Shown: positions 1 to 52,212 of the stretch, in pieces | How positions within the stretch are numbered: position 1 is the first letter of the stretch | How the letters are laid out: every line of letters starts with the position of its first letter | DNA from: an uncultured Gammaproteobacteria bacterium | GTDB taxonomy: Bacteria > Patescibacteriota > Microgenomatia > Levybacterales > UBA12049 | Direction of reading: 5' to 3' | Assembly (NCBI GenBank): GCA_964503265.1 | Contig: CAZCYO010000005.1 | Span: 39,151-103,150, forward strand | DNA: 64,000 nucleotides | Translations under genes and position numbers: made by a program | Notes under the pieces: generated by a model | Seen by the model: the letters and a program-made list of their open reading frames with translations, nothing else | Databases searched by the model: none | What the model was told of the DNA's origin: nothing

Positions 1-1757
1 TTATGACTCGCGTTATATGTCATATACAGATAATTTGTCTGTGCGGGAAACTCACCAGCCAACGTGTCGATTTGCATAATTCCCGGATATATTCCGAATT
101 TTCCCCGAAGCGTGCGTATTTCAAGCCCAGTTCTCCCTATTAATTTTCCGATTCGCTTGTCTGAGAAACCAAGTTGTTTGAGACGAAGAAGTTGCCCCTC
201 CTGCCAAAAACTGTCATCCTGAACTTGTTTCAGGATCTTTTTATTTTTCTTTTGAGATGCTGAACTAAATTCAGCATGACTATTTTTTAGTTTTTCTTCT
301 TCCTTCACAATATTCTCCACTCGATACAAAAACCATGGATCAATCCCTGTGAGCTTGTGGAGTTCTGCCACGTTCATCCCCTTTTGAAATGCTTTCGCTA
401 TGGCAAACATCCGCTGTGGAGTGGGATGAGTAAGCAGATCTTTAAGATCTCGCCCCTGTAGCTTTCCCCTCGTGAATAATTCATCTGAAACAGCCCCTTC
501 AAAGTCTAAGTCAAGCATACGAATCGCTTTCTGATATGCCTCTTCAAATGTTCTCCCAATTCCCATCACTTCTCCAACCGACTTCATGCTGCTTCCAATC
601 GTGTCCACAGCATTTTTAAATTTGTCCATATCCCACCGTGGAATCTTCACCGTGACGTAATCAAGTGCGGGTTCGAAACAAAATTGTGTTTTCTTCGTTA
701 CTTTATTCGTTAACTCAGTTAAATTCTTACCCAGTGCGAGTTTCGCAGCCACGTAGGCAAGCGGATAGCCCGTGGCTTTACTCGCCAAGGCTGATGAACG
801 TGAAAGCCGAGCGTTTACCTCAATGACGTAGTAATCCAAAGGAGCTTTCCCCTCGCCCTTTGGGAGAGGGTCGGGGTGAGGGTTGAGTGCATACTGAATA
901 TTACATTCCCCGATAATACCGAGACTTCGAACTACTTTTAACGTAATTGAGCGTAACTCGTGGTATTCAAAATTTGTGAGGGTTTGACTTGGAGCAATGA
1001 CGATCGACTCTCCTGTATGAATTCCCAGCGGATCCATATTTTCCATATTACAGACAGTAATACAGTTATCGTCCGCGTCACGCACAACTTCATACTCAAT
1101 TTCTTTATAGTGATGAAGATATTTCTCAACTAACACCTGTGTGACGAAAGAAAATGCATGTGTGATAAGTTCGTGTAATTCTTTTGCATTTCGCGCAACT
1201 CCCGATCCTTGGCCACCAAGTGCAAATCCGGCTCGAACCATCACAGGAAATCCAATTTCCTGTGCAATCTGTTCTGCTTGCCTGACTGTTTTAGCAGCTT
1301 TACTCGGAGGTGTAGACACATCAAGCTTTCGTAAATGATGAGCAAATGAACGGCGGTCTTCAGTGAGTAGTACAGCTGACATAGGAGTACCCAGTATCGT
1401 GACGTTATGTTTTTCTAATATTTTTTTCTTATAGAGTTCAATACCACAATTTAAGGCTGTTTGGCCTCCAAAGGAGAGAGCGATGGCATCTGGTTTTTCC
1501 TTTTCAATCACTCGCTCGACAAAATACGGAGTCACTGGCAAGAAATACACACGATCTGCCATCTGCTTTGAGGTTTGGATCGTTGCGATATTCGGATTGA
1601 TTAGAACCGTTTCTGTGCCTTCTTCTTTAAACGCCTTAATTGCCTGAGATCCTGAATAGTCAAACTCTCCAGCCTCCCCGATTTTGAGAGCACCACTTCC
1701 GAGTATTAGTATCTTTCTATATTCTTGTTTACTGCTCTGTTTTTGTTGCTCTTTCAT
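1..1757 (-). CDS. carB: carbamoyl-phosphate synthase large subunit (N-terminal ~585 aa; the gene continues beyond the window start)
   Basis: My own translation of the minus strand from the ATG at 1757-1755 gives [42 protein letters not shown]..., with the ATP-grasp and CPSase L-chain motifs ([23 protein letters not shown]). It is absent from the ORF track because there is no in-window stop codon. Confidence 0.9.
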   Translation of the reverse strand, partial: [585 protein letters not shown]

Positions 1758-1769
1758 ATGAATCAAGAA

Positions 1770-2159
1770 TTATGAATCATGAATTAAGGTTTTTGATTTT
1801 TTAATTAACCCATTGAGTAACTTGTTTACGACAATAGTCTTTTCAGCACTTTCATTAAATGCTTGCTTTGCAATATAGCCAAGGTCTCTAGCGATAAGAA
1901 GTTGGTTTTGTACTTCTGTTATGGAACCGAGTGACATCGCGTAAAATTGTGCTTTCTCTTTATAGGAATTTCTACTAAATCCTTCTGCAATGTTGGAAGT
2001 CACCGATACTATTGCACGTCTGATTTGATTAGTCAGCCCAAACATCTCTTCTTTAGGGAAATCCTGAGTTAGTTTATAAACTAACAACACTAATTCATGT
2101 GCTTCTCTCCATGCGTTTAGATCAGTAAAGGATTTTATTTTTCGTGATTCTTGATTCAT
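1770..2159 (-). CDS. four-helix-bundle protein (TIGR02436 / '23S rRNA intervening-sequence protein' family)
   Basis: 129 aa with the characteristic TNQIRRAxVSVxSNIAEGxSR...KEKAQFYAMSLGSITEVQNQLLIARDLGYI signature. Its ATG overlaps the carA TGA (ATGA). Confidence 0.8.
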   Translation of the reverse strand: MNQESRKIKSFTDLNAWREAHELVLLVYKLTQDFPKEEMFGLTNQIRRAIVSVTSNIAEGFSRNSYKEKAQFYAMSLGSITEVQNQLLIARDLGYIAKQAFNESAEKTIVVNKLLNGLIKKSKTLIHDS

Positions 2160-3217
2160 GATTCTTGATTCATCCTCTCTAAGAAATAATCAAATATCCA
2201 CTCTGCATCTGTCGGTCCTGGTGTTGCCTCTGGATGGAACTGAACAGACATAATTGGTTTCGTCTTATGGATAATCCCTTCATTTGTACCATCATTTGCA
2301 TTCGTAAACCAGGGATTAAACCCATCTGGGATACGATTAACAGCAAACCCGTGGTTTTGCGTCGTGATATAACACCGCTTCGTTCCTTCCATAGTACACG
2401 GCTGATTCTGGCTTCGGTGACCATAAGGGAGTTTTTTCGTATCTCCTCCTGCTGCAAGTGAGAGAATTTGATGCCCTAAACAAATGCCCAGAATTGGAAT
2501 ATTTTTTGTAAGGAGTTTTTTTACGTGTAGTATCGTTTCTTTTACTAATTTAGGATCTCCAGGTCCATTTGAAATAAGCACGCCATCAAATTTCTCTTTA
2601 AGAGAAAGTGGATCCATATCCCAAGGAATCGTAATTACTCGGTACCCACGTTCAAGAAGTGCCCGCTCAATATTTCTCTTCGCACCACAATCGACAAGCA
2701 CAATTGTCTTTTTTTTCTTTTTTTTAGTCGGTTCTTGTATTATCACTTTTTTCGTAGAGACTTGAGCGACAAGATTATCAGTATTGGGATCATACCAGGG
2801 TATATCATTTCCACATATAATTTTGCCAAGGAGCGCTCCTTGTTCTCTAATTCGTTGGGTGAGTGCACGAGTGTCTTTAATCTGAAGCAAAGGAACACCT
2901 TCGTCTTTAAACCACTGTGCGAGGGTTTGTTTACTTTGAAAGTGAGATGGCGTATCGATGTACTCACTGACAATCAGCCCTGATACCATGAGATGATCTG
3001 CTTCCCATAACGTTTTATCTGGCACGCCATAATTTCCAATCAGTGGATAGGTAAGGACTAACATTTGCCCTTTATAGGATGGGTCAGTTAAACTTTCTGG
3101 ATATCCCATCATGCCTGTTGAGAACACTACTTCCCCAGCTACTGATGTGTCAGCTCCAAAACTAGTTCCTTCTATTGTTGTTTTATCGTTAAGTACTAGT
3201 GTGGCAGTTTTTTGCAT
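2156..3217 (-). CDS. carA: carbamoyl-phosphate synthase small subunit (glutamine amidotransferase)
   Basis: 353 aa with a CPSase small-chain N-domain and a class-I GATase domain (GICLGHQILSLAAGG catalytic Cys motif; FHPEATPGP). Confidence 0.9.
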   Translation of the reverse strand: MQKTATLVLNDKTTIEGTSFGADTSVAGEVVFSTGMMGYPESLTDPSYKGQMLVLTYPLIGNYGVPDKTLWEADHLMVSGLIVSEYIDTPSHFQSKQTLAQWFKDEGVPLLQIKDTRALTQRIREQGALLGKIICGNDIPWYDPNTDNLVAQVSTKKVIIQEPTKKKKKKTIVLVDCGAKRNIERALLERGYRVITIPWDMDPLSLKEKFDGVLISNGPGDPKLVKETILHVKKLLTKNIPILGICLGHQILSLAAGGDTKKLPYGHRSQNQPCTMEGTKRCYITTQNHGFAVNRIPDGFNPWFTNANDGTNEGIIHKTKPIMSVQFHPEATPGPTDAEWIFDYFLERMNQES

Positions 3218-3223
3218 AAAAAA

Positions 3224-3242
3224 AGAGCGCTTAACGCGCTCT
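3224..3242 (-). terminator. intrinsic-terminator-like hairpin (AGAGCGC-ttaac-GCGCTCT) followed on the minus strand by a 7-T run that directly abuts the carA ATG
   Basis: Perfect 7-bp GC-rich stem with a 5-nt loop. The A-run 3218-3224 on the plus strand is a T-run on the minus strand. It lies 3 nt upstream of the carA start codon (3217). Confidence 0.45.
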
Positions 3243-40308: not shown

Positions 40309-42063
40309 TTATGCTTTTTCTATTCGGTTGTACGTAAATGGAATAGTTGTCATCAGTTTGCGCTCTATCTTTCCGTCTTTATCTTTGGTGCTTTCAAAGA
40401 AGGACATTCTTAGAGAACCATCTTCCATTTTTGTGGCAATTCCCCAGTAAAACCTCTGACCTACCACATAATCATCTAAGATTTTTTTCTCTGCCTGCAA
40501 ATCAGTCTCTGATGGTGTGTCTATGTTTTTCCCATGAAGGCCTAATTGATGAATATGTACCTGTATAAGATGATTTCTTCCGTCTCCAGGCGATGGTTCC
40601 TTTCCATATGCTTCTTTTAACCCAGTTTTTTCTTCAAGTTCTGTAAAGCGCTTTGTGTGCTTTGGCATATCGGGTATAGTACTATCATTAATTGCTTTAC
40701 TATAGTCATTATCTGGAATAGCTACTGCTCCTAGCATGGCATAATTCTCTCCCTGTTTTGTCGCAGTCCCACGTATCGAAAATCCTAGCTCTTTATTAAC
40801 TTCATTTGCTCGCGCGGCAATTTGATCAATCATTTGAAGGAGTGCCGGGGTGAGTATGAGAGCGGATGCTTTTTTTGTGAGCTCTTTACTCCGTACGTCA
40901 GCTAGTTGTGTTTTCAAGTATGCTAATTCTTTTTGGAAATCTTCTTTTAGCGATATTCCTTCAGTTCTGAAGTCTCCAGTAGTTAGATCTAATAATTGAT
41001 CCACGACCTCTTTATAGGTTAATCTTTTACCTTCAGGCGTTTTTATTTGTGAAGGAAGGTTGGCATATTGATCAATGTCTTTTTGGGATACCGGAATAAC
41101 GCTATTTTTCTCTTCTGTTTTTTCCGGTGGAGCAGGGGTATTTTCTGTCACAGGAGAGATATCAAAAAGGAGCTTGAGTAGTGGTTTTTCCTTGTCGTTT
41201 GGGTTATTGACTCTTGTTGTAGTATCCCCGGATTTCTTTTCGTTAGCTTTTCTAATGAGTTCATCTTTTAGCTCTTTATTATTACTACTAATGAGATCTG
41301 CTTCTATAAGAGAGGGGATAAGTTTGCTCGTGTTGGCCCCAAAAACATTAGAAAACCAGGAAATAATCTCCATATCTTTTTGTAATGCGGCATAATCTAC
41401 TTTCTCATTTTCATCGACATATTCAGTCGCGACATATAAATAAAATTTTTTAATATCAGAGCTCTTATTAGGTCCAACAAAATATGTATCATAGAAATGT
41501 AGTAGTTTATCTGTCGTGATCTCTCCCTCAATCCCCATTTTTTTATAAACGTTCTTTACTTCTTCACGTTTATTTTCGGCTGTCACTTCAAGTTTCTTTA
41601 TAAGCGATGCTTTTACTTGTTCAGCCCACGCTGCTTTTTGTTTGTCAAATTCCTTTTCTGGCTGTTTTTTCCAATAATCAGTACGCTCTGTATCAGAAAG
41701 TTTTTTTACTTTATTTACCGTATCATCTGATAGGGTGAGTTGTTCATTTTTAATTTCTCCAATATCAGTTTTCTGTGGGTTAAGTGCATCACTACCCAGA
41801 AGTAATCGGGTTGTTAAGGCGACACGTTCTGATGAAACGCGTTCTATTTCCTTTGGTTTAACTGTCTCTGCTTGGGATGGGGAAGCTCCTTCGTGTTCTG
41901 ACATAGATTTAGTGTAATCAGTATAAAAAATCTTTGCAAATTTTGCTTTATAGGAACTTAACAAAATGATTGTCATATTGCTCAATTGTTTTGTTGCTGG
42001 AACAATCGTTAGCAATGAAGCAATGAAGCAATGAAGCAATGAAGCAATGAAGCAATGAAGCAA
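40309..42063 (-). CDS. hypothetical protein (584 aa as called). The N-terminus encoded by the 8-bp repeat is probably 5' leader, with the true start likely downstream (MTIIL... or MSEHEG...)
   Basis: Long ORF with a K/E-rich soluble body; the first 16 codons (HCFIASLL x2) are an artefact of translating the GCAATGAA repeats. Confidence 0.45.
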   Translation of the reverse strand: MLHCFIASLLHCFIASLLTIVPATKQLSNMTIILLSSYKAKFAKIFYTDYTKSMSEHEGASPSQAETVKPKEIERVSSERVALTTRLLLGSDALNPQKTDIGEIKNEQLTLSDDTVNKVKKLSDTERTDYWKKQPEKEFDKQKAAWAEQVKASLIKKLEVTAENKREEVKNVYKKMGIEGEITTDKLLHFYDTYFVGPNKSSDIKKFYLYVATEYVDENEKVDYAALQKDMEIISWFSNVFGANTSKLIPSLIEADLISSNNKELKDELIRKANEKKSGDTTTRVNNPNDKEKPLLKLLFDISPVTENTPAPPEKTEEKNSVIPVSQKDIDQYANLPSQIKTPEGKRLTYKEVVDQLLDLTTGDFRTEGISLKEDFQKELAYLKTQLADVRSKELTKKASALILTPALLQMIDQIAARANEVNKELGFSIRGTATKQGENYAMLGAVAIPDNDYSKAINDSTIPDMPKHTKRFTELEEKTGLKEAYGKEPSPGDGRNHLIQVHIHQLGLHGKNIDTPSETDLQAEKKILDDYVVGQRFYWGIATKMEDGSLRMSFFESTKDKDGKIERKLMTTIPFTYNRIEKA

Positions 42064-42067
42064 TGTA
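42012..42067. repeat. simple-sequence repeat: 8-bp unit GCAATGAA x6 perfect + 1 degenerate copy
   Basis: Seen directly (agcaatgaagcaatgaag...caatgtaac). It lies in the divergent region between gene 40309-42063 (-) and gene 42084-42773 (+). Confidence 0.9.
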
Positions 42068-42083
42068 ACAATCTAACATTTGG

Positions 42084-42773
42084 TTGTATACTATTTCTAT
42101 GCTCTTTGTGGGATTATTCTTTCTTTTTCTTATTCTCTTATTTATCTCATCATATTTACTTACTCAATCTCTTTCAACTCTTTTTTATCGGATCACGAGA
42201 AGTGAGAGATGGACTATTACTATTCTGGCCCTTCTTTTTTTTCCAGGTGTGCTCATTCACGAGTTGGCACACTTCTTAATGGCAACGATATTATTTGTTC
42301 CGACAGGGGAGATAGAGTTTATCCCACAGATTATGGAAGACAGGGTGAAATTAGGGAGTGTTCAGATCGGGCAGACAGATCCATTCAGACGGGCGATTAT
42401 CGGGATTGCACCAGTTATCGTTGGGGCGAGTGTATTAATTGGGGTATTATATTACTTTACAACTTCGACCTTCGCATTTACTACACCACTAGATATTCTT
42501 AAAGTACTAGGGATACTCTATATAGTGTTTGAAATTAGTAATACGATGTTTTCGAGTAAGCGTGATGTTGAAGGTACGCTTGAACTACTTGTAGCCATAG
42601 TGGTTATCGGAGGGGTACTCTACTTTGCTGGAGTACGACTCCCTGAATCGTTTATCGAAGTGATTACTTCAGACAAAGTATTATCATTCTTTGAACAAAC
42701 AAGTAAACTTCTCATTCTCCCGCTGCTTCTTAACTATTCCTTGTGGGCAGTAAGTAAACTCCTCGGAAAATAA
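42084..42773 (+). CDS. polytopic membrane protein with an HExxH motif (putative membrane zinc metalloprotease)
   Basis: 229 aa; about 5 TM segments; LIHELAHFLMA motif at the end of TM2. Confidence 0.4.
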   Translation: MYTISMLFVGLFFLFLILLFISSYLLTQSLSTLFYRITRSERWTITILALLFFPGVLIHELAHFLMATILFVPTGEIEFIPQIMEDRVKLGSVQIGQTDPFRRAIIGIAPVIVGASVLIGVLYYFTTSTFAFTTPLDILKVLGILYIVFEISNTMFSSKRDVEGTLELLVAIVVIGGVLYFAGVRLPESFIEVITSDKVLSFFEQTSKLLILPLLLNYSLWAVSKLLGK

Positions 42774-42777
42774 CTCT

Positions 42778-43143
42778 TTACGTACATGTGTCAAATCCAA
42801 AGTTCTTAATGCATGAGGCACCTGTTATATATGCGATTGTATTGACGATACCTATCGCTAAGAGAATCAATACAAGTCCGATCAGTGCATAGGTGATGAT
42901 TTGTTTTGCTGCACCTGCTTGTTTCGGATCTCCACCAGACATAATATATTTAATACCACCCAAAATGATAAACACGAGTGCGGTAAATCCAGCAAAGAAG
43001 AGGGAATAGTTAAGGAGTTGCTTAAAGAGCGCCGGGATACATGCTAGTGTTGCGATATCAGCAGTCCCATCTGGTGCAGTCCCTTTAAGACAGCCTGCCT
43101 TTGCCCAGAAAGATTCAGCGAGAATGAATAAGTGAATGAACAT
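42778..43143 (-). CDS. VirB2/TrbC-like T4SS pilin paralog 1
   Basis: 121 aa; signal sequence + TM-loop-TM core GFTALVFIILGGIKYIMSGGDPKQAGAAKQIITYALIGLVLILLAIGIVN, shared with the four downstream paralogs. Confidence 0.6.
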   Translation of the reverse strand: MFIHLFILAESFWAKAGCLKGTAPDGTADIATLACIPALFKQLLNYSLFFAGFTALVFIILGGIKYIMSGGDPKQAGAAKQIITYALIGLVLILLAIGIVNTIAYITGASCIKNFGFDTCT

Positions 43144-43212
43144 ATATCTAGCCTAACAAATGCCAAAAAAAAAGACAAGCATATGCTTGTCTTAGTCTAA
43201 AAAAGACGGTAA

Positions 43213-43644
43213 TTAGTTAACGAGTTTCGGAAGAGAAAGATTACTAACACTAAGACCAAATAATCCGAGAACGATATTAAGAATGAAGTAGGCAAGGAAG
43301 GTAATAATAAGACCAACAAGAGCAGCAACGATAGTCCCACGTGCTTCTCCAACTTTGGCTTTATCACCACCTGAAAGAATCCATTTAATACCACCAAAGA
43401 TTAGAAAGAAGAGAGAAATAACAGCAGCAATTACAAGAACTCCAATAATTATATTTCGAAGAACATCGCCAGTTGAACTGCCTTGAAGCTTACATAGTTG
43501 ATCTTGGATTTGTCCTGCTGATCCACCCGTAACACCTGACTTAGCACAAGGATTAAGATCTACTTCGCCAGCTGCCATTGCAGTAGATACGACTGAGGCC
43601 ATAAAAAGTGAAGATGTAGAGATTGTTGTGAGCAGTTTTTTCAT
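43213..43644 (-). CDS. VirB2/TrbC-like T4SS pilin paralog 2
   Basis: 143 aa; signal peptide (MKKLLTTISTSSLFMASVVSTAMA); core LFFLIFGGIKWILSGGDKAKVGEARGTIVAALVGLIITFLAYFILNIVLGLFGL. Confidence 0.65.
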   Translation of the reverse strand: MKKLLTTISTSSLFMASVVSTAMAAGEVDLNPCAKSGVTGGSAGQIQDQLCKLQGSSTGDVLRNIIIGVLVIAAVISLFFLIFGGIKWILSGGDKAKVGEARGTIVAALVGLIITFLAYFILNIVLGLFGLSVSNLSLPKLVN

Positions 43645-43784
43645 GTTTTTTAGATAAGTTATTGTTATCTGTATTTATTATTGAACTATTGTTTATGTGT
43701 TGTCAATAGATCAAAATGAATTACTTTTTTGTGCCCTTTTGAGGCTAAATGTATTCATTTGCTATAACGGCGCATCATCCAAAA

Positions 43785-44198
43785 TTAGTTATTCACCAAT
43801 CGAGGAATTTTAAAGATAGTGTTTGAATCGAGTCCGAAAATTCCAAGAACAATATTTAAAATAAAGAAGGAGAGAAAGGTGATGATTAGTCCGACGACTG
43901 CTGCAGTTAACGTCGCACGTGCTTCGCCAACTTTTGCCTTGTCCCCGCCAGAGAGAATCCATCTAATACCACCATAAATAAGAAAGAATAACGAAGCGAT
44001 CGCTGCTAAAACGAGTAAGATTGAAACGATATTAAAAATAAGTGAATTACCGCTACTTTCTGGATTTATATCGCAGAGAGATTTAAACCCACCATCAGGA
44101 CACAGTGTTACCGATGATGCAGCGATAGTGTATGTAGCAGACAGAATAACAGTACCGATAGAGGAGAGTGCGCTAATAGGAAGAAAATATCGTTTCAT
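43785..44198 (-). CDS. VirB2/TrbC-like T4SS pilin paralog 3
   Basis: 137 aa; core LFFLIYGGIRWILSGGDKAKVGEARATLTAAVVGLIITFLSFFILNIVLGIFGL, about 80% identical to paralog 2 in the core. Confidence 0.65.
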   Translation of the reverse strand: MKRYFLPISALSSIGTVILSATYTIAASSVTLCPDGGFKSLCDINPESSGNSLIFNIVSILLVLAAIASLFFLIYGGIRWILSGGDKAKVGEARATLTAAVVGLIITFLSFFILNIVLGIFGLDSNTIFKIPRLVNN

Positions 44199-44237
44199 AG
44201 ATATATCGTAGAAACTCTCACAAAAAAAGTCAATTGA

Positions 44238-44567
44238 TTAGGTGTTTGGTAGATCAAGAGACAAGAGATTTATATTAAACATGTATCCAACGATATTAAC
44301 TATCCCAAAGGAGAGAAAGACGATGAGTACCCCAACTACTGCAAAGATGATTCTATTTCGCGCAGCTTGGATTTTCGCTTTATCGCCACCAGAGGTTATC
44401 CATAAAATCCCACCCCAAATAATAAAAAAAAGCGTAATCACTACGCCAATGACTATAAAGAGTGTTATCGCATTTTGAATAAGTTTCTGGTTCTCAGCTA
44501 TACCACCTGTTGGAATACCTGATGGGACTGGGACTGATTGTCCATTAATAGTGAATCCTGCTGCCAT
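44238..44567 (-). CDS. VirB2/TrbC-like T4SS pilin paralog 4
   Basis: 109 aa; core LFFIIWGGILWITSGGDKAKIQAARNRIIFAVVGVLIVFLSFGIVNIVG. Confidence 0.6.
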   Translation of the reverse strand: MAAGFTINGQSVPVPSGIPTGGIAENQKLIQNAITLFIVIGVVITLFFIIWGGILWITSGGDKAKIQAARNRIIFAVVGVLIVFLSFGIVNIVGYMFNINLLSLDLPNT

Positions 44568-46071: not shown

Positions 46072-47409
46072 ATGAAAGAGAAACATTTCGATTCGTTATA
46101 TCCGGCTGATTCGTATTCTGATGAAATTGCCAAGATTGGCGTATCTATTAAAGAAGGGAACTCTAGTCAGCTCATCGGACTTCCTGGTGTAGGAAGAGCA
46201 AATGTATTAAGTCTGCTTGCACATAACAAGTCTGTTCGAGAGAAACATTTTGGAGAGAATCAGAAATGGCAACATTTCGTACTCGTTAATTTCTCTGAAG
46301 TAAAAGATCGAACACTTTTTGATGTCACTAAGTTTCTTTTTCTCTCACTCATGGAATCATTAAAAGAACGTTCGATGACTGAAGAGTATGAAATGGTTCA
46401 GGCTGAATTTAAAGAAGCACTCTCATTTAACGATGAATTAGTACTTTTTCAAGCCTTGAAATCAACTATCGACTATTTGTGCCTAGAGAAAGAACTAACT
46501 GTCATTTTTCTTTTTGACAGGTTTGCAGAATATTTACAGCAATTAACTTCAACGTTTTTTGCTAACCTTCGTGTGCTTCGAAATCATGCCAAATATCGTT
46601 TTAGTATCGTTTTTTCTTTAGAACGACCCCTTGAAGATATCATTGAGCCGTCGCTGCTATCAGATTTTTATGAATTTGTGGGTGGACACTATGTGTTTAT
46701 GCGCATATATGATCCTGTAAGCGCGGCATTTAGGCTCTCATATCTAGAGAAAGTTACCGGGCGAAAGCTGGATAACGCATGTATGGATGAAATACACCGA
46801 TTAACAGGTGGATTGTGGAGGCTTACGAAGATTTGCGCTGAAGCGATGCTTGCTGAGGAGAAACATGCAGATGAGCTGTTACCGTTTCTTCTTTCACGCA
46901 AAACAGTAAAAGAAGCATTATGTAAAATCTGGGATTCATTTTCACCTGATGAACAAACCGCACTGCGGACCTATATGGATGGAAAGATAGATCCAGATGT
47001 AGAGATGCAAGAATACCTTTCAAAGATTGGAATTATTAAAGATAACGTCCTTCAGATACCATTTCTTAAAGAGGTAATTGGACAAAAAGAAGTAACTACA
47101 CAACTGGACGAACATATTATTTATGACATAGATACAAATATGATCATGAAAGGGGATGTGGAGATTTCAGATAGATTAACTGCTGCCGAATACCGCTTAT
47201 TACTTTTCTGCCTCCAGAACACCGAGCGAATTCTTGAGCGTGATGAAATTATTACAGCAGTTTGGAGAGATAGTGCGACGACTGCAGGGGTTACCGATCA
47301 AGCGCTTGACCAGCTCATTTTCCGGGTTAGAAAAAAGATTGAAGCAGATCCAAATAACCCCCTCCATCTCCAGACGGTCAAGGGCAGAGGGTTTAAATTC
47401 AGTTCCTGA
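46072..47409 (+). CDS. transcriptional regulator: N-terminal ATPase-like domain (degenerate P-loop) + C-terminal OmpR/PhoB-type winged-helix DNA-binding domain
   Basis: 445 aa; LIGLPGVGRANVLSLL P-loop-like segment; C-terminus LTAAEYRLLLFCLQNTERILERDEIITAVW...LIFRVRKKIE...LQTVKGRGFKF matches the trans_reg_C winged helix. Confidence 0.55.
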   Translation: MKEKHFDSLYPADSYSDEIAKIGVSIKEGNSSQLIGLPGVGRANVLSLLAHNKSVREKHFGENQKWQHFVLVNFSEVKDRTLFDVTKFLFLSLMESLKERSMTEEYEMVQAEFKEALSFNDELVLFQALKSTIDYLCLEKELTVIFLFDRFAEYLQQLTSTFFANLRVLRNHAKYRFSIVFSLERPLEDIIEPSLLSDFYEFVGGHYVFMRIYDPVSAAFRLSYLEKVTGRKLDNACMDEIHRLTGGLWRLTKICAEAMLAEEKHADELLPFLLSRKTVKEALCKIWDSFSPDEQTALRTYMDGKIDPDVEMQEYLSKIGIIKDNVLQIPFLKEVIGQKEVTTQLDEHIIYDIDTNMIMKGDVEISDRLTAAEYRLLLFCLQNTERILERDEIITAVWRDSATTAGVTDQALDQLIFRVRKKIEADPNNPLHLQTVKGRGFKFSS

Positions 47410-47433
47410 TAAAGTCAAAAATCAAAAGGTAAA

Positions 47434-47811
47434 ATGCAAAATCACAGTTCAAAATTCAAAAGTGATTTAAAAGTGAGATGCTATCACTTTAGTTTAGAGC
47501 TTATTACTGTTATTGACTCCTTACCTAAAGAGCGAAGTTGCTGGATCATTGGAGACCAGGTATTAAGAAGTGGGACAAGTATTGGCGCGAATCTTACAGA
47601 AGCAACAGCCTCAAGCTCCAAACTAGAATTTAAGAAATTTCATGAGATAGCTTTGAAAAGTGCAAACGAAACAAAATACTGGCTTAATTTACTCTTAGAT
47701 AGCGGTAAAGGAGAAAAATACCGTCTTGAACAGCTTTTACAAGAAGTTACGGAGTTATCAAATATGATAGCGGCAGGAATTATGAAAATGAAAGGTAAAA
47801 CGACCTTTTAA
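47434..47811 (+). CDS. four-helix-bundle protein (TIGR02436 family), second copy
   Basis: 125 aa; GDQVLRSGTSIGANLTEA...ALKSANETKYWLNLL signature; flanked by imperfect inverted repeats (47413-47430 / 47812-47833). Confidence 0.75.
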   Translation: MQNHSSKFKSDLKVRCYHFSLELITVIDSLPKERSCWIIGDQVLRSGTSIGANLTEATASSSKLEFKKFHEIALKSANETKYWLNLLLDSGKGEKYRLEQLLQEVTELSNMIAAGIMKMKGKTTF

Positions 47812-47928
47812 CTTTTGATTTGTGTTTTTGACTTGATACTTTTCATTTTTTACTTCTCCCTCACACTTATCATTGTTTTATAAGTATTTTATCAAGAAGA
47901 ATGTTAGCTATGAAGATATACTCTCCTC

Positions 47929-50900
47929 ATGAAACAAAACGAATTTTATGTGAACGAGGATCAGCTTAGATTGACAGAAAAGCAGCATCAAAGCTATGCT
48001 AGATCTATGCACGAACCTGCCCTGGACACGAAAGAAGACAAAGCATTAGATACTGCTGTCAGTAAATTTGTAGTTAGAATTCAGTCTGCTTTTAGAAGGC
48101 AGGATGATGCTGAGAAGAAAAAACAGGAAGAAGAAAAGAAAAATCTTGAGAAGAACGCGGATAAAGATACCAAACCTGATTCTCCGATTAATAAAACGCC
48201 GGTAACAAATGAGCATGATACTCTTCAAGAACCGAAAGTATCACTCCTCTCAAAACTTTTTGGTGCACTCGTATCAGGTATATCAAATGAAAAATTACTT
48301 GTAAAAGCTGAATCGTTCACGCAGTCTTACAAAACCCTTAATACCGCAAAGCCTGAAGAGTTAAAAGATCTTTTTTTATCATGGGAACCTGACACGAAAG
48401 ATCGAACAGAGATCATGCTGTCTAAAACTGCGCAGCGAATGATTTTAGAGATCGTTAAAGATAAAGGGATTAGCACTGCTATCTTCCTCCAGGCTGTCAA
48501 TAGTGGCTCAACTGTTAAAGCACAGGAAGCTGCATCTACCATACAACACACAGCTGGTGTTTCAGAACCTATGCAAAAAGCAATTCAAGACATCCTCGAT
48601 ACGATGGAGGTTCATCCGGTCGATGAATGGAAAACGGAAGACTATGCGAAACAATTCGTAAAACTACATAAAGCAGTAGAGAAGAGTAGTGATAGTGGTA
48701 CTCCACAGAGTGCTGTAGATCTTCAAGTTGCGCAAGTCGTAGAGAATTTTCTTATTGACGAAGTAACAGCAGATAATGTCTCGGAAAATTCATTTGTACA
48801 AGCAGTAACGACAGTCGTGACGAACAGTGAAGAAGCAGATGGGAATGCTTCGTTTCATGCACACCCTGAACCTATTCAAAAAAACGATGAACAGAAAGCT
48901 GTTTTAGAAGCAGAAAGAATTCTTAAAGAAAACCAGACAGCTACTCCTACTGCAGATGCAGCTGATGCCTATCTAAAAAATCAACCAGCAGCATCTCCTG
49001 AGACAATTCACACTTTTTCTAACATACCTAAAAAACTTTCTGGAGGACATAGTGTTGAGACAGCATATGCTGTATGGAAAGCCTTTAACAGAGGACAAGA
49101 GCTAAGTGAAGAACAGCGACTGCTTGCTGAACGTGGATTAATCCCTACTCTTGAAGGTGGTAGTCCTCTAACACGAGCAGATGATGGAGAACAGGTACAT
49201 AACCGCCTTCCAATGCAAGAAGTCAGGATGGGAGCATCTCCAGATACGACTACGTTCGAAGAATTTCTTGATACTCTTGACCCTGAAGCGAAAAAAAATC
49301 TTCTAGAATCGCTTGCAGAAGCAGACAAAGAAGCGGTAAAAAAACCTGAAGTACGAGCATTAGAGCGAGCAGAAAATTTAAAGGATCGTATTGATCGATG
49401 GGGGACAAGTTATGACCCCAAAAAAAGGCAAGAAGACTTAAAAAAACTGCGTGGACTTGTTCAACCAAACGGAGAGCTGACTACCAGACGTGGTAGTATT
49501 CTCAGTGCCATTAAGCGTGCGAAGTTTGATCCTGATGAGCCTCCTGTTGATGATCCAGAAGATACGACAGGAAGAAAGAAAGTCGCACGAGGGATAAGTC
49601 CAGAAAAAATTAAAAAAGAGCGTGATTATGTCCAGAAAATTTTTGAAGCAGCGCGTGCCAGTGTTAATGATGCATTATTAAGAGGAGATATCGATGCTGT
49701 GAAAATAACAGAAAAGGGGTTACTTGATCAACTCCTTATCTATGAAAAAAAGTATCCGAGTGAACGCCGGGGCAAAGGAAAAGAAGGATATGACACAGTT
49801 GAGAATATTAATGACTTGTGTGAACAAATCAGTCGAAGTGACGATAGATTCGATATCGGTGGAGACTATCAACTGATAGATGATAAAACACAGAGTGTAA
49901 ATGAGCAAAACTTCATGATTTGGATTCGAGAACAAATGGTGTATTGGCATGGACAAGATCCTGATAGTGAAGTAAAGTTCTTCTCCCAAATTGCTGTTGA
50001 TAATAACGACCTTTTTCGTCCAATTAATTTAGGATCGATGATTGCAAATAAGAGTCTGTACTTTAAAACTCGTGATAATAATACCCTTGAAGATCTGTAT
50101 AACGAAGTAACGAATCTCGCATGGTTAATTGGAGGAATTCGCAACATGGATATTTCATATCGTTTACAGATGACCCCTGAGGAAAAAAACGGAGAACTGA
50201 TGGCAAGTTTACTTGCAAATAACATGCTTACCAAAAAAAGTGCTAATGGAAAGAATACCTTAGAGGCTATTCTCACGATGGCTGGTCGTTTCTACGATAA
50301 AGCAAATCACGGCGATGCTGGCGATGATTTTATGGAAAAACATCGAGATATGGATTTGGGGGACGGAATAGCCACCGGACTTGCCATTTACTACAACATT
50401 ACCGACAAAGAAAAATTACAATCGTTAATTGGTGCTGATACGCATTTCTTTAAACGAAGTGGTTTTAAAATGGCACTGGAGAAGATGGCTGGAGTGGATA
50501 AATTAGATCTTCCTGAGGTCGCCGAAAGGAAAATGCACGCATATTTAAAAAGAGCAAAACTTCTTACGAAAGATGATGATGACGTTGATGATACATTCGA
50601 AGCATTCATGGATAAATGGTTTGGCAAAGAGGAGGACGGAGAGCTCCAGGAAAAAGGACGAACTGACTTTATGAAAATGCTCAATGTGTTTGTGCCAGAA
50701 CCACACCCACAACAAGTAGACCTAGCCAATCAATTGATTCGTCAAGCTATTACTGAGCTGTCAAATAAACATAAGGAGCCTCGGGTTAGAGGGAAACCAA
50801 ATGATTTTGCGCAAGCTGATGTGGCAGATGACGCCACAGCAAACTTCGCTCAATTAACTGCAAGTCTTATGAGCTGGTGGGGTGGTGCGGCTGCGAAAGC

Positions 50901-52212
50901 TGATACAGGAGTGGCTGCGGTAAATGGTATGTCGAAATACAAATGGGTAAGAAGCTATAAGTATAAACAGGCTGATTCTGGACGTGCCGGTCCGGTAGGT
51001 AATTTGTATGGTATGGGTACAGTTCAAGAAGTATACGTCGATGTATTTACTGGTATGTTAACGATTGGGAAGAAATCTATCATGGAAGTGGTCGAGCGGA
51101 AAATAAAAGACTTGAAAGATAAAAAATCATTTGAAGAAAAAGAAAAAACAGCACAAGAGCTTAACTTTAACCTTAATACAGCAAAACAATATGGAGCTAA
51201 TACGTCTAATGCGGCAAAGATTTATTTATCAGAAGGTGGTGCCGATATGCCACATTTCCATGATTTCATCGAGGTGAATCAGTGGGGAACAGTCAGAATC
51301 AATGCAGATAAAATGGCCGAGGCATTTCAAGATAAAATTATTAAACCTGCTCGTTATAACTGGAGAACCAACCCCATGCCATTTCATAAAGATGTCAGAA
51401 AATTACTCGATGATCCTAAACTACCTAAAAAGATTAAGCTTAAAGATGGAAGAGAAATACCGGTTCGAGACACCTATATGACTGTCACTCAGCTGGAAAA
51501 TACTTTTAGTAGACAAGCGATTAGTAATATTCAAAAGATTTTCCAGCATGATATGCATCATAAATTTAATATGGATAAAGATGATAAGAAGTCTGTTGAT
51601 TATTTTACTGCTAATGCACATGCAAAGTTTTTTGACGAAAAAGCTGGGCGAGTGTATCGATTTAAAGTGAACGAAAAAGGAGACTATGTCGATAAAAAGG
51701 GAAAAGCGATTCATATGCCACATCATGAGGGCGGACATCATCAAAGTGAAGTAGACTGGCTATTAAAACGTGGTGTTGTTGATTGGGATACGAATAAGAC
51801 AACTGTGGGTCTTGAAAGTAAATTACCTAAAGAAATAGCTGACTTAATGGATAATAGTATTTTTCGAAGTATTGTGGTGAGAAGTTATTTGGTAACACGA
51901 TTTGGAGGATTGTTATACGGAAATTCTGTCAGAAACAGTCCATATAAGTTCTTAGATATTTTATCTCGTGAACATGCAGTTGAAGGACTTGAAAGTATCC
52001 CGACGAACGCTGTCGCAGATGAAGATGATCTGCATGCGAATAATATGCATGGACACTATTTTTCTCACTTTGATATCCAACTTATTCGAAAATTATCAAA
52101 TAATCAGCGTTGGAAGAATTATAGTAAAGCAGTAGGCGAGTCGTTTAGTTCAGGAACATTTGAGGGACTGAAAGAACTTTGGAGCTTCTTCTGGAAAAAC
52201 GCATTTAGTTAA
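47929..52212 (+). CDS. giant hypothetical protein (1427 aa), soluble, K/E/D-rich; candidate secreted substrate/effector or structural protein of the T4SS-like locus
   Basis: Uninterrupted 4.3-kb ORF with no TM segments or nucleotide-binding motifs. It lies between the regulator/4HB genes and the VirB6-like gene (its 3' end overlaps by 4 nt). Confidence 0.5.
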   Translation: MKQNEFYVNEDQLRLTEKQHQSYARSMHEPALDTKEDKALDTAVSKFVVRIQSAFRRQDDAEKKKQEEEKKNLEKNADKDTKPDSPINKTPVTNEHDTLQEPKVSLLSKLFGALVSGISNEKLLVKAESFTQSYKTLNTAKPEELKDLFLSWEPDTKDRTEIMLSKTAQRMILEIVKDKGISTAIFLQAVNSGSTVKAQEAASTIQHTAGVSEPMQKAIQDILDTMEVHPVDEWKTEDYAKQFVKLHKAVEKSSDSGTPQSAVDLQVAQVVENFLIDEVTADNVSENSFVQAVTTVVTNSEEADGNASFHAHPEPIQKNDEQKAVLEAERILKENQTATPTADAADAYLKNQPAASPETIHTFSNIPKKLSGGHSVETAYAVWKAFNRGQELSEEQRLLAERGLIPTLEGGSPLTRADDGEQVHNRLPMQEVRMGASPDTTTFEEFLDTLDPEAKKNLLESLAEADKEAVKKPEVRALERAENLKDRIDRWGTSYDPKKRQEDLKKLRGLVQPNGELTTRRGSILSAIKRAKFDPDEPPVDDPEDTTGRKKVARGISPEKIKKERDYVQKIFEAARASVNDALLRGDIDAVKITEKGLLDQLLIYEKKYPSERRGKGKEGYDTVENINDLCEQISRSDDRFDIGGDYQLIDDKTQSVNEQNFMIWIREQMVYWHGQDPDSEVKFFSQIAVDNNDLFRPINLGSMIANKSLYFKTRDNNTLEDLYNEVTNLAWLIGGIRNMDISYRLQMTPEEKNGELMASLLANNMLTKKSANGKNTLEAILTMAGRFYDKANHGDAGDDFMEKHRDMDLGDGIATGLAIYYNITDKEKLQSLIGADTHFFKRSGFKMALEKMAGVDKLDLPEVAERKMHAYLKRAKLLTKDDDDVDDTFEAFMDKWFGKEEDGELQEKGRTDFMKMLNVFVPEPHPQQVDLANQLIRQAITELSNKHKEPRVRGKPNDFAQADVADDATANFAQLTASLMSWWGGAAAKADTGVAAVNGMSKYKWVRSYKYKQADSGRAGPVGNLYGMGTVQEVYVDVFTGMLTIGKKSIMEVVERKIKDLKDKKSFEEKEKTAQELNFNLNTAKQYGANTSNAAKIYLSEGGADMPHFHDFIEVNQWGTVRINADKMAEAFQDKIIKPARYNWRTNPMPFHKDVRKLLDDPKLPKKIKLKDGREIPVRDTYMTVTQLENTFSRQAISNIQKIFQHDMHHKFNMDKDDKKSVDYFTANAHAKFFDEKAGRVYRFKVNEKGDYVDKKGKAIHMPHHEGGHHQSEVDWLLKRGVVDWDTNKTTVGLESKLPKEIADLMDNSIFRSIVVRSYLVTRFGGLLYGNSVRNSPYKFLDILSREHAVEGLESIPTNAVADEDDLHANNMHGHYFSHFDIQLIRKLSNNQRWKNYSKAVGESFSSGTFEGLKELWSFFWKNAFS

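Follow-up and report, generated by a model that had tools for sequence, protein, structure and literature searches.

A four-helix-bundle gene cassette bounded by inverted heptad arrays between carA and carB, and its probable kinship with rRNA intervening sequences

Background

Intervening sequences (IVSs) of rRNA genes that encode proteins of the S23p family have been known since the 1990s. In this work, we analyzed a 64,000-nt stretch of DNA (contig CAZCYO010000005.1 of assembly GCA_964503265.1; hereafter the window, with positions counted from its first letter), in which a gene of the same family, encoding a four-helix-bundle (4HB) protein, lies between carA and carB and is bracketed by inverted arrays of 7-nt units. 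The one relative of this element that has been studied experimentally is the helix-45 IVS of the 23S rRNA of Coxiella burnetii, an insertion of 428 nt whose 28-bp terminal stem closes a loop with an S23p open reading frame (ORF), the ATG of which is immediately preceded by two to three GACAGAT heptamers in tandem (PMC4990558). RNase III cuts within the stem, as mapped by rapid amplification of cDNA ends, and this IVS is considered a selfish element that spreads horizontally (PMC4990558).

ORFs of the same family, annotated as 23S_rRNA_IVP, have also been found in rRNA insertions of the candidate phyla radiation (CPR) (PMC11270868). In Flavobacterium columnare, a gene for a "four helix bundle protein" is located between the genes for guanylate kinase and nadD, with gaps of approximately 35 nt, and is listed among the phage-element regions (PMC5524665, Table 5), which suggests that the habit of occupying operon junctions extends to chromosomes of Bacteroidota. 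Heptamer microsatellites are over-represented in bacteria, and heptamer arrays were described in Xanthomonas (GGGAATC, with 70-75 convergent pairs per genome) and in Nostoc, without a link to 4HB genes (PMC4692102). In the literature searched we found no description of 4HB cassettes at operon junctions, an absence which is no proof that they are unpublished.

Here, the anatomy of the window element is combined with a comparison of related junctions, a survey of 4HB relatives and structure prediction for the encoded protein. The window element is very probably a member of a family of mobile cassettes of the IVS type.

Results and discussion

Anatomy of the carA-carB cassette

The genes carA, 4HB and carB are packed end to end on the window's minus strand (Table 1), and their identities, proposed in a first-pass annotation from the sequence, are confirmed by the matches to Pfam and TIGR02436. 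The 4HB gene is enclosed by an inverted repeat of 27 nt (1758-1784 versus 2147-2173), in which 25 of 27 positions (93%) are complementary. A bounding repeat of 13-14 bp had been noted previously; it is real and beyond chance, but larger than was thought. The segment ATGAATCAAGAAT occupies 1758-1770 of the plus strand, and its exact reverse complement indeed occurs twice in tandem, at 2147-2159 and 2161-2173, with a period of 14 nt (the tandem copies of this side being delimited as 2145-2157 and 2159-2171). The tandem 14-mer, however, is not confined to the carA side as had been assumed, since the carB side also consists of two such units (1757-1770 and 1771-1784, 93% identical), and it is because of this second pair that the inverted repeat reaches 27 nt. 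Tandem Repeats Finder reports arrays of periods 7 and 14 on both sides, with 4.4 copies of the 7-nt unit in the 5' arm. Read in the RNA sense, the 5' arm is AUGAAUC AAGAAUC AUGAAUC AAGAAU and the 3' arm is AUUCAUG AUUCAUA AUUCUUG AUUCAU, and exact matches to the 13-mer within the 64 kb are confined to the cassette.

When a transcript segment of 471 nt was folded, as the first-pass annotation had proposed, the arms were paired in both the minimum free energy (MFE) and the centroid structures, and the duplex energy of the two arms is -30.2 kcal/mol versus approximately -12 for shuffled arms. Among 44 ORFs of the window scored for inverted repeats bracketing the start and the stop, the carAB 4HB gene (score 22) and a second 4HB gene (18.5) are followed by a next best score of 10, with a median of 7.5. 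A stem of at least 20 bp enclosing an ORF, and tandem heptamers beside the ORF start as in Coxiella, are characteristic of IVSs, and terminal inverted repeats of this kind are likewise expected of DNA transposons and MITEs (miniature inverted-repeat transposable elements).

Both arms intrude into coding sequence. The stop codon of carA (TGA, 2158-2156, minus strand) and the start codon of the 4HB gene (ATG, 2159-2157) overlap as ATGA, and the 5' arm holds both of them. The last five codons of carA together with its stop are encoded by this arm, so that carA ends in ...ERMNQES and the 4HB protein begins with MNQES; the overlap and the peptide common to both proteins had been recognized at first sight, and both hold in the sequence. 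In relatives, the carA product has the C terminus ...DYFLE(K/R)I, and the end of carA overlaps carB as ATGA. The 3' arm holds the final four codons of the 4HB gene with its stop (TAA, 1772-1770) and ends 1 base before the ATG of carB (1757-1755); the segment 1758-1770 abuts this codon and, contrary to what had been stated, does not overlap the carB start. The distance from the 4HB stop to the carB ATG is 12 nt. No promoter-like or terminator-like site was found inside the cassette on its own strand.

Insertion, decay and duplication of the cassette

The junction of carA and carB was compared among 80 metagenome relatives of carA with 50-73% identity. Approximately 45 junctions are empty, and in these the stop and the start overlap, nearly always as ...AUAUGA.... 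A 4HB cassette with heptad arms sits exactly at the junction in L085/L087, L106 and L119 (L numbers denote loci) and in the genome loci L035 and L043, and a divergent 4HB gene with AAAACNN arms occupies it in L102. In L085 (3541-3987) the 4HB copy is frameshifted, and in L098 (2324-2500) the junction retains an inverted-repeat remnant of 176 nt without an ORF, with units of the AAAATCA/TTGATCT type; these two are apparent stages of cassette decay. Other junctions hold ordinary repeat-free genes, including a methyltransferase gene, NUDIX genes and a TauE-like gene. As to the 4HB gene, the junctions of relatives either lack it or contain it together with its repeats, and the same gene order devoid of repeats was not encountered. 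Filled junctions are scattered among empty ones in a neighbor-joining (NJ) tree of carA, which agrees with the original proposal that the cassette had been inserted between the two genes; this scatter is suggestive of independent insertions and not proof of them, because NJ trees without support values were built from short proteins.

The 3' border of the window cassette keeps the native sequence CAU-AUGAAAG (the hyphen marking the border), and the point of insertion lies at the ancestral AUGA. The duplicated 14-mer had been interpreted as a target-site or junction duplication. This interpretation is rejected, because both ends of the element are heptad arrays, which belong to the element throughout the family, and because the 14-mer is absent from the empty junctions (...ATATGA...). 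No target-site duplication is evident in the filled and empty junctions or in the paralogues, there being at most an ambiguous AT/ATGA in common with the native junction.

Similarity among 4HB proteins is independent of their genomic context, with a median of 0.696 for pairs from the same and from different contexts alike, and the nearest relatives of the window protein (80-82%) come from different operons, where they lie to either side of mreB or within a pilin-like cluster. In L162, the two copies next to mreB have 95.6% nucleotide identity; their homology spans the arrays and stops at the outer array ends, and the copies differ in the number of heptads. The same pattern was observed for the paralogues of L011. 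As judged from these comparisons, the cassette with its arms behaves as one unit in duplication, gain and loss.

The neighbors of the cassettes span approximately 70-90 Pfam families and share the strand of the cassette in 138 of 149 cases, versus 173 of 219 (79%) other adjacent ORF pairs (p = 4e-4), with median gaps of 26 nt upstream and 23 nt downstream. Recurrent among them are coupled pairs such as thyA-folA (thymidylate synthase and dihydrofolate reductase), atpA/G/D, carA-carB, a LexA-ImuB-like pair and the pilin/PrgI/TraG genes of type IV secretion systems (T4SS).

Recurrence across 4HB relatives

A scan of one genome per species yielded 80 loci, nearly all from metagenome-assembled genomes (MAGs) of Patescibacteria (CPR), whose proteins are 56-77% identical. 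With a threshold score of at least 14, an inverted repeat bracketing the start and the stop was detected in 62 of 81 4HB loci (median 17, typical length 20-35 nt). For control ORFs of these loci the median is 7, and of the 14 among 209 that reach the threshold most are additional 4HB genes, more distant in sequence and with different repeat units, the remaining ones including PDDEXK_3, DUF559 and IS200-like ORFs.

Both flanks of the 4HB genes show a period-7 autocorrelation (0.54 at lag 7 and approximately 0.5 at lag 14, versus 0.23-0.34 at other lags), which was not observed inside the ORF. The arms pair in a register that is fixed relative to the start and stop codons and is congruent to -2 mod 7 in 47 of the 62 loci; the Watson-Crick fraction is 0.60, 0.55 and 0.56 at registers -2, -9 and +5, versus 0.18-0.38 elsewhere. 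The median duplex energy of the two arms of one cassette is -28.5 kcal/mol, compared to -14.2 after shuffling and -20.05 when arms of different loci are combined (p = 1e-11). The heptad sequence varies among cassettes (GAAT, GTAT, CAAAA, TAGGGAG, CAGAAGT and GGTTCAA types, and GACAGAT in Coxiella), and the arms within one cassette always match each other.

No rRNA was found around the cassettes in 14 related loci with long non-coding flanks. Relatives were absent from viral contigs and phage records, and no match was obtained with PADLOC. Variation of the heptad copy number, seen between paralogues, was not found within populations, where Coxiella strains show it, as represented by the near-identical contigs L164-L167 and L162/L163.

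Two side observations concern the surveyed loci. A PDDEXK_3 nuclease-like ORF (L018:4458-4835), a DUF559 endonuclease-like ORF with GC-rich arms ATTCCCCTCTTGGGAGGGG... (L041:1307-1705) and an IS200-like Y1 transposase fragment (L075:4750-5187), all in Patescibacteria loci, are bracketed by inverted repeats that are not heptad arrays, and may represent parallel stem-bounded mini-cassettes. In addition, several "binchicken" MAG records (L004, L006, L009, L010 and others) are titled "uncultured Gammaproteobacteria", "Bdellovibrionales" or "Pseudomonadales"; their contigs carry cassettes 65-75% identical to those of Patescibacteria with CPR-like neighbors, and these taxonomy labels look unreliable.

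Family and structure of the encoded protein

The carAB 4HB protein belongs to PF05635 (125 bits, cutoff 33.8) and TIGR02436 (120 bits, cutoff 24), and its closest solved homolog is XCC0516 of Xanthomonas (PDB 2GSC, E = 1.6e-21). The AlphaFold (AF2) model is predicted with a pLDDT of 91.5 and contains four helices; residues 1-8, which are those encoded by the repeat, are disordered in the model. In a Foldseek search, 2GSC was the best match (TM-score 0.78-0.92, root-mean-square deviation 0.7-0.8), followed by 2RLD (TM-score 0.70-0.90) and then by Avd proteins of diversity-generating retroelements (DGRs), and the predicted fold is thus a four-helix bundle like that of 2GSC and 2RLD.

Cassettes in other phyla

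We inspected eight 4HB genes on plasmids of cyanobacteria and Riemerella, and six of them are bracketed by inverted heptad arrays, of unrelated sequence, the units being TAGGGAG, CAGAAGT, TAGGGTG, AGGAGAT, CAGAGGG and GGTTCAA. Several of these plasmid genes are located between partner genes (nrdB/nrdA, cas10/cmr3 and cas6/cas4).

Two individual loci deserve a description of their own. On a plasmid of Nostoc edaphicum (L168), the nrd operon is interrupted between nrdB and nrdA by a 4HB gene that has (TAGGGAG)n/(CTCCCTA)n arms and is encoded on the other strand, an orientation that would be expected if recombination between inverted arrays can flip the cassette. On a Pseudanabaena plasmid (L174, NZ_CP112875.1; cas6-4HB-cas4), the arrays are direct, with approximately 12 copies of AAAAGCT upstream and approximately 9 copies of AAAAGCC downstream, which departs from the stem design.

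A second cassette and other features of the window

The window contains a second 4HB cassette (Table 1), located between a gene with a Trans_reg_C domain (46072-47409) and an ORF of 1427 aa (47929-52212). Its protein is divergent from the carAB 4HB protein and beyond detection by tblastn. The arms (47412-47462 and 47805-47855) are 51 nt long, inverted and imperfect, consist of CAAAANN heptads and are 75% complementary, and the long-range stem is closed in the MFE and centroid folds.

Table 1. Coordinates of the two cassettes and of the carAB genes in the window
Feature	Position	Strand	Description
carB (large subunit), N-terminal 585 codons	1-1757	-	Pfam CPSase_L_D1/D2/D3; frame without a stop, runs off the window start
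Cassette 3' arm	1757-1786	-	Heptad/14-mer array ATTCATG ATTCATA ATTCTTG ATTCAT; pairing segment 1784-1758
4HB protein gene, S23p/23S_rRNA_IVP family	1770-2159	-	129 aa; PF05635 1.9e-36; TIGR02436 120 bits
Cassette 5' arm (RNA sense)	2141-2173	-	Heptad/14-mer array ATGAATC AAGAATC ATGAATC AAGAAT; pairing segment 2173-2147
carA (carbamoyl-phosphate synthase small subunit)	2156-3217	-	353 aa; Pfam CPSase_sm_chain 3.7e-46, GATase 1.1e-54
Second 4HB cassette	47412-47855	+	ORF 47434-47811, 125 aa; PF05635 6.1e-22 (78 bits); TIGR02436 86 bits

Elsewhere in the window, four tandem small ORFs of 109-143 aa (42778-44567, minus strand) have a common C-terminal hydrophobic motif, ...GGDKAKV/IGEAR..., and resemble the T4SS-pilin-like genes (PF18895) that neighbor 4HB cassettes at other loci. 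Between the divergent ORFs 40309-42063 (minus strand) and 42084-42773 (plus strand) there is a perfect array of 6.9 copies of the octanucleotide AGCAATGA (42011-42072); because its unit is not a multiple of three, a change of copy number could switch expression in a manner resembling phase variation. Just 5' of the carA ATG (3217), a GC-rich hairpin is followed by a U-run (AGAGCGCGTTAAGCGCTCT TTTTTTT; 3224-3242, minus strand), downstream of a promoter-like site at 3329-3301, and may be a leader terminator or attenuator of a pyrimidine/arginine operon. A GC-rich stretch of carB (approximately 840-884) was considered as an inserted repeat and dropped, being a length-variable NPxP loop that is present in homologues too.

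Proposed explanation and its alternatives

The best overall explanation, which we hold with moderate confidence, is that of a selfish or commensal 4HB cassette with its stem serving as an RNA handle. The window element would represent a large family of small cassettes, each with a PF05635 ORF that begins within one tandem array of 7-nt units and ends within a second, inverted one. Such cassettes would land in operon orientation at tight stop/start junctions of co-transcribed genes, here at the ancestral ATGA of carA and carB. Having no recognizable promoter or terminator, the cassette would be read within a carA-4HB-carB transcript, and translation would be relayed from carA to the 4HB gene via the AUGA overlap and then, across the 12 nt beyond the 4HB stop, to carB. 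The arms would pair as a 27-bp helix of approximately -30 kcal/mol, looping out the ORF. Double-stranded RNA of 27 bp is long enough for RNase III. The stem could then be a double-stranded handle for RNase III, or for another process dependent on double-stranded RNA, to detach the cassette RNA from the host RNA or to insulate the two. A role as in rRNA IVSs is the most likely one, because the anatomy is that of the S23p 23S IVS, whose stem is cut by RNase III; for processing of this particular stem by RNase III, argued by analogy, we consider the chances to be even. Movement may occur by recombination or template switching between arrays, or by an RNA-mediated route with the Avd-like protein.

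Several results weigh against this explanation, above all against the role given to the RNA stem. Covariation was analyzed in 19 aligned cassettes of the GAAT type. The helix is paired at 72.8% in its own register versus 29-47% in slid registers, but column shuffles give 71.6% (65 of 500), and the covariation is not significant (0.141 versus 0.125; 51 of 500). Because column shuffles reproduce the pairing, the complementarity of the GAAT type could stem from a conserved motif present as inverted copies. On the sense strand, no G:U bias is seen among the arm mismatches (36 G:T versus 42 A:C), the z-scores of whole-region folds are modest (-1.7 and -0.5 for the two window cassettes), many stems in the family are imperfect, and the association of heptad type with 4HB similarity, of which the NJ tree gave an impression, is not significant (p = 0.17). 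The 5' arm is translated, as the tail of carA and the head of the 4HB gene, and ribosomes may therefore block formation of the helix. Among the cyanobacterial copies, the arrays are direct in L174 and only downstream in L170. In addition to the missing target-site duplication, no transposase or recombinase is evident, the 4HB protein being encoded by the only ORF of the cassette. On this balance, the stem is a predicted and precedented structure, and three tests gave no support for selection at the RNA level.

The alternative that survives best, which we regard as unlikely on the whole, is that the heptad arrays act on DNA, serving as terminal inverted repeats, as substrates for recombination or as sites of protein binding by which the cassette would be copied, inverted or exchanged among sites, with the RNA stem being incidental; it is compatible with the explanation given above. 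Possible routes at the DNA level are, for instance, homologous or template-switch recombination between arrays, or binding of the arrays by a pentameric 4HB protein. The homology of paralogues ending exactly at the outer array ends points in this direction, as do their different array copy numbers, familiar from slippage-prone DNA, and the incongruence of the 4HB phylogeny with context, which is expected if cassettes swap between array-bearing sites. The direct arrays of L174, the lack of a G:U bias and the non-significant covariation of the GAAT type, with pairing explained by a conserved motif, fit as well. On the other hand, heptads vary widely among proteins with 60-80% identity, which would be unexpected for a shared protein-recognition site, while the arms of one cassette always match. 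Own arms also pair better than swapped ones, the stem is an RNase III site in the experimentally studied relative, and neither a transposase nor a target-site duplication was found.

It is very improbable that the 4HB gene is a long-fixed host gene, whose stem regulates carAB through carB translation or mRNA stability, and not a mobile insertion. The end of the 3' arm 1 base before the carB ATG would sequester the initiation region, and several lineages have a 4HB gene at this junction. However, carA and carB overlap directly in most relatives, the carriers are scattered in the carA tree, their 4HB proteins are not mutual closest relatives, and the cassette type is found in dozens of unrelated operons; moreover, a pseudogenised copy and an ORF-less remnant were observed at the carA-carB junction itself.

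Still harder to credit is the possibility that the gene encodes the Avd accessory protein of a DGR. Homology to Avd is indicated by sequence and structure, including the bAvd family of Pfam (28 bits), a PHROG Avd profile (9e-15) and the Foldseek matches 8UB7 and 4DWL (TM-score approximately 0.73-0.88). Against membership, the Pfam score is below the cutoff of 40, the NCBIfam equivalog NF033474 gives 23 bits versus a cutoff of 80, and the best match in both structure and sequence is the non-DGR S23p protein 2GSC. No reverse transcriptase occurs among the called neighbors, which extend approximately 6 kb upstream (LeuRS-like, L25, RuvC, RuvA, RuvB, carA and carB).

Finally, an origin of the repeats by chance or slippage, unrelated to the gene, can practically be dismissed: although the sequence has a high AT content and an excess of heptamer microsatellites is known in bacteria (PMC4692102), the arms are complementary at 25 of 27 positions, the two 4HB ORFs are the two top scorers in the window, the pattern is present in 62 of 81 relatives with a register fixed to start and stop, and other phyla show it too, with different heptads.

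Implications

Units of an S23p ORF, inverted heptad arrays and a stem of approximately 27 bp are a common find at the boundaries of protein-coding genes in tightly coupled operons, and the IVS of rRNA is then one special form of a general element. A biological context is thereby suggested for heptanucleotide repeat arrays, and thousands of natural comparisons of filled and empty sites are now at hand for studying the mechanism. The question is raised of why a cassette that enters an ATGA-coupled junction does no harm, with RNase III processing and translational relay, singly or together, as candidate answers. For annotation, the tails of host genes, such as MNQES in carA, and the termini of the 4HB proteins should be read as set by the repeat and not by protein function.

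A wider and rather improbable reading is that PF05635 genes with inverted heptad arrays constitute a distinct class of autonomous mini mobile elements spanning the phyla (Patescibacteria, Cyanobacteria, Bacteroidota and gammaproteobacterial IVSs), in which the Avd-like pentameric protein mediates the movement of its own stem-bounded RNA or DNA. The 4HB protein might then recruit a host reverse transcriptase or the recombination machinery to a structured target at an operon junction or an rRNA helix. If so, the classic rRNA IVSs, many of the short tandemly repeated repetitive (STRR) sequences of cyanobacteria and the GGGAATC pairs of Xanthomonas would be landing sites or remnants of such elements.

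Comparison with known systems

Several described systems resemble the window cassette in part. Integron gene cassettes are likewise promoterless, co-directional units of a single ORF, which are expressed from an upstream promoter and depend on an imperfect inverted repeat. They differ in having one downstream attC, a dedicated integrase and a single attI, whereas the window element has arms on both sides and no integrase, and its relatives occupy dispersed sites in many operons.

Correia elements of Neisseria are non-coding MITEs located between co-transcribed genes, with TA target duplications; they are thought to be mobilized in trans by a transposase, and their RNA hairpin is a substrate of RNase III. 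They are similar to the window element as small insertions between co-transcribed genes with terminal inverted repeats, while the latter contains an ORF, has heptad arrays for arms and shows no target-site duplication. More generally, the combination of a target-site duplication and a cognate transposase that is typical of DNA transposons and MITEs was not found for the cassette.

The heptanucleotide repeats of cyanobacteria (STRR) and Xanthomonas are also tandem 7-nt units, intergenic in operons and often in inverted pairs, and arrays of this sort flank the cyanobacterial 4HB genes inspected here, but they were reported as G-quadruplex or simple sequence repeat elements and not tied to 4HB genes. 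The bAvd proteins of DGRs (PDB 4DWL and 8UB7) form a homologous four-helix bundle, and Avd, like the S23p relative 2GSC, crystallizes as five chains; the carAB 4HB protein, in contrast, scores under the Avd cutoffs, has no adjacent reverse transcriptase or template and variable repeats (TR/VR), and is encoded, as are its relatives, inside housekeeping operons.

The closest likeness is to the S23p-encoding 23S IVSs of Coxiella, Leptospira, Brucella and Haemophilus. The window cassette lies between carA and carB and not in a helix of 23S or 16S rRNA, its host RNA would be the transcript of a protein-coding operon, and its arms overlap coding sequence (the tail of carA and the head and tail of the 4HB gene). 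Its ORF is intact and placed for translational coupling, whereas the ORF of the Coxiella IVS is decaying and probably untranslated; RNase III cleavage was mapped in Coxiella, and the likeness of the window element rests on sequence anatomy. In that anatomy the two agree closely, as the first-pass annotation had recognized: a PF05635 ORF in the loop, heptamers abutting the ORF start, and a terminal stem, which is a 27-bp heptad stem in the window and a 28-bp stem in Coxiella.

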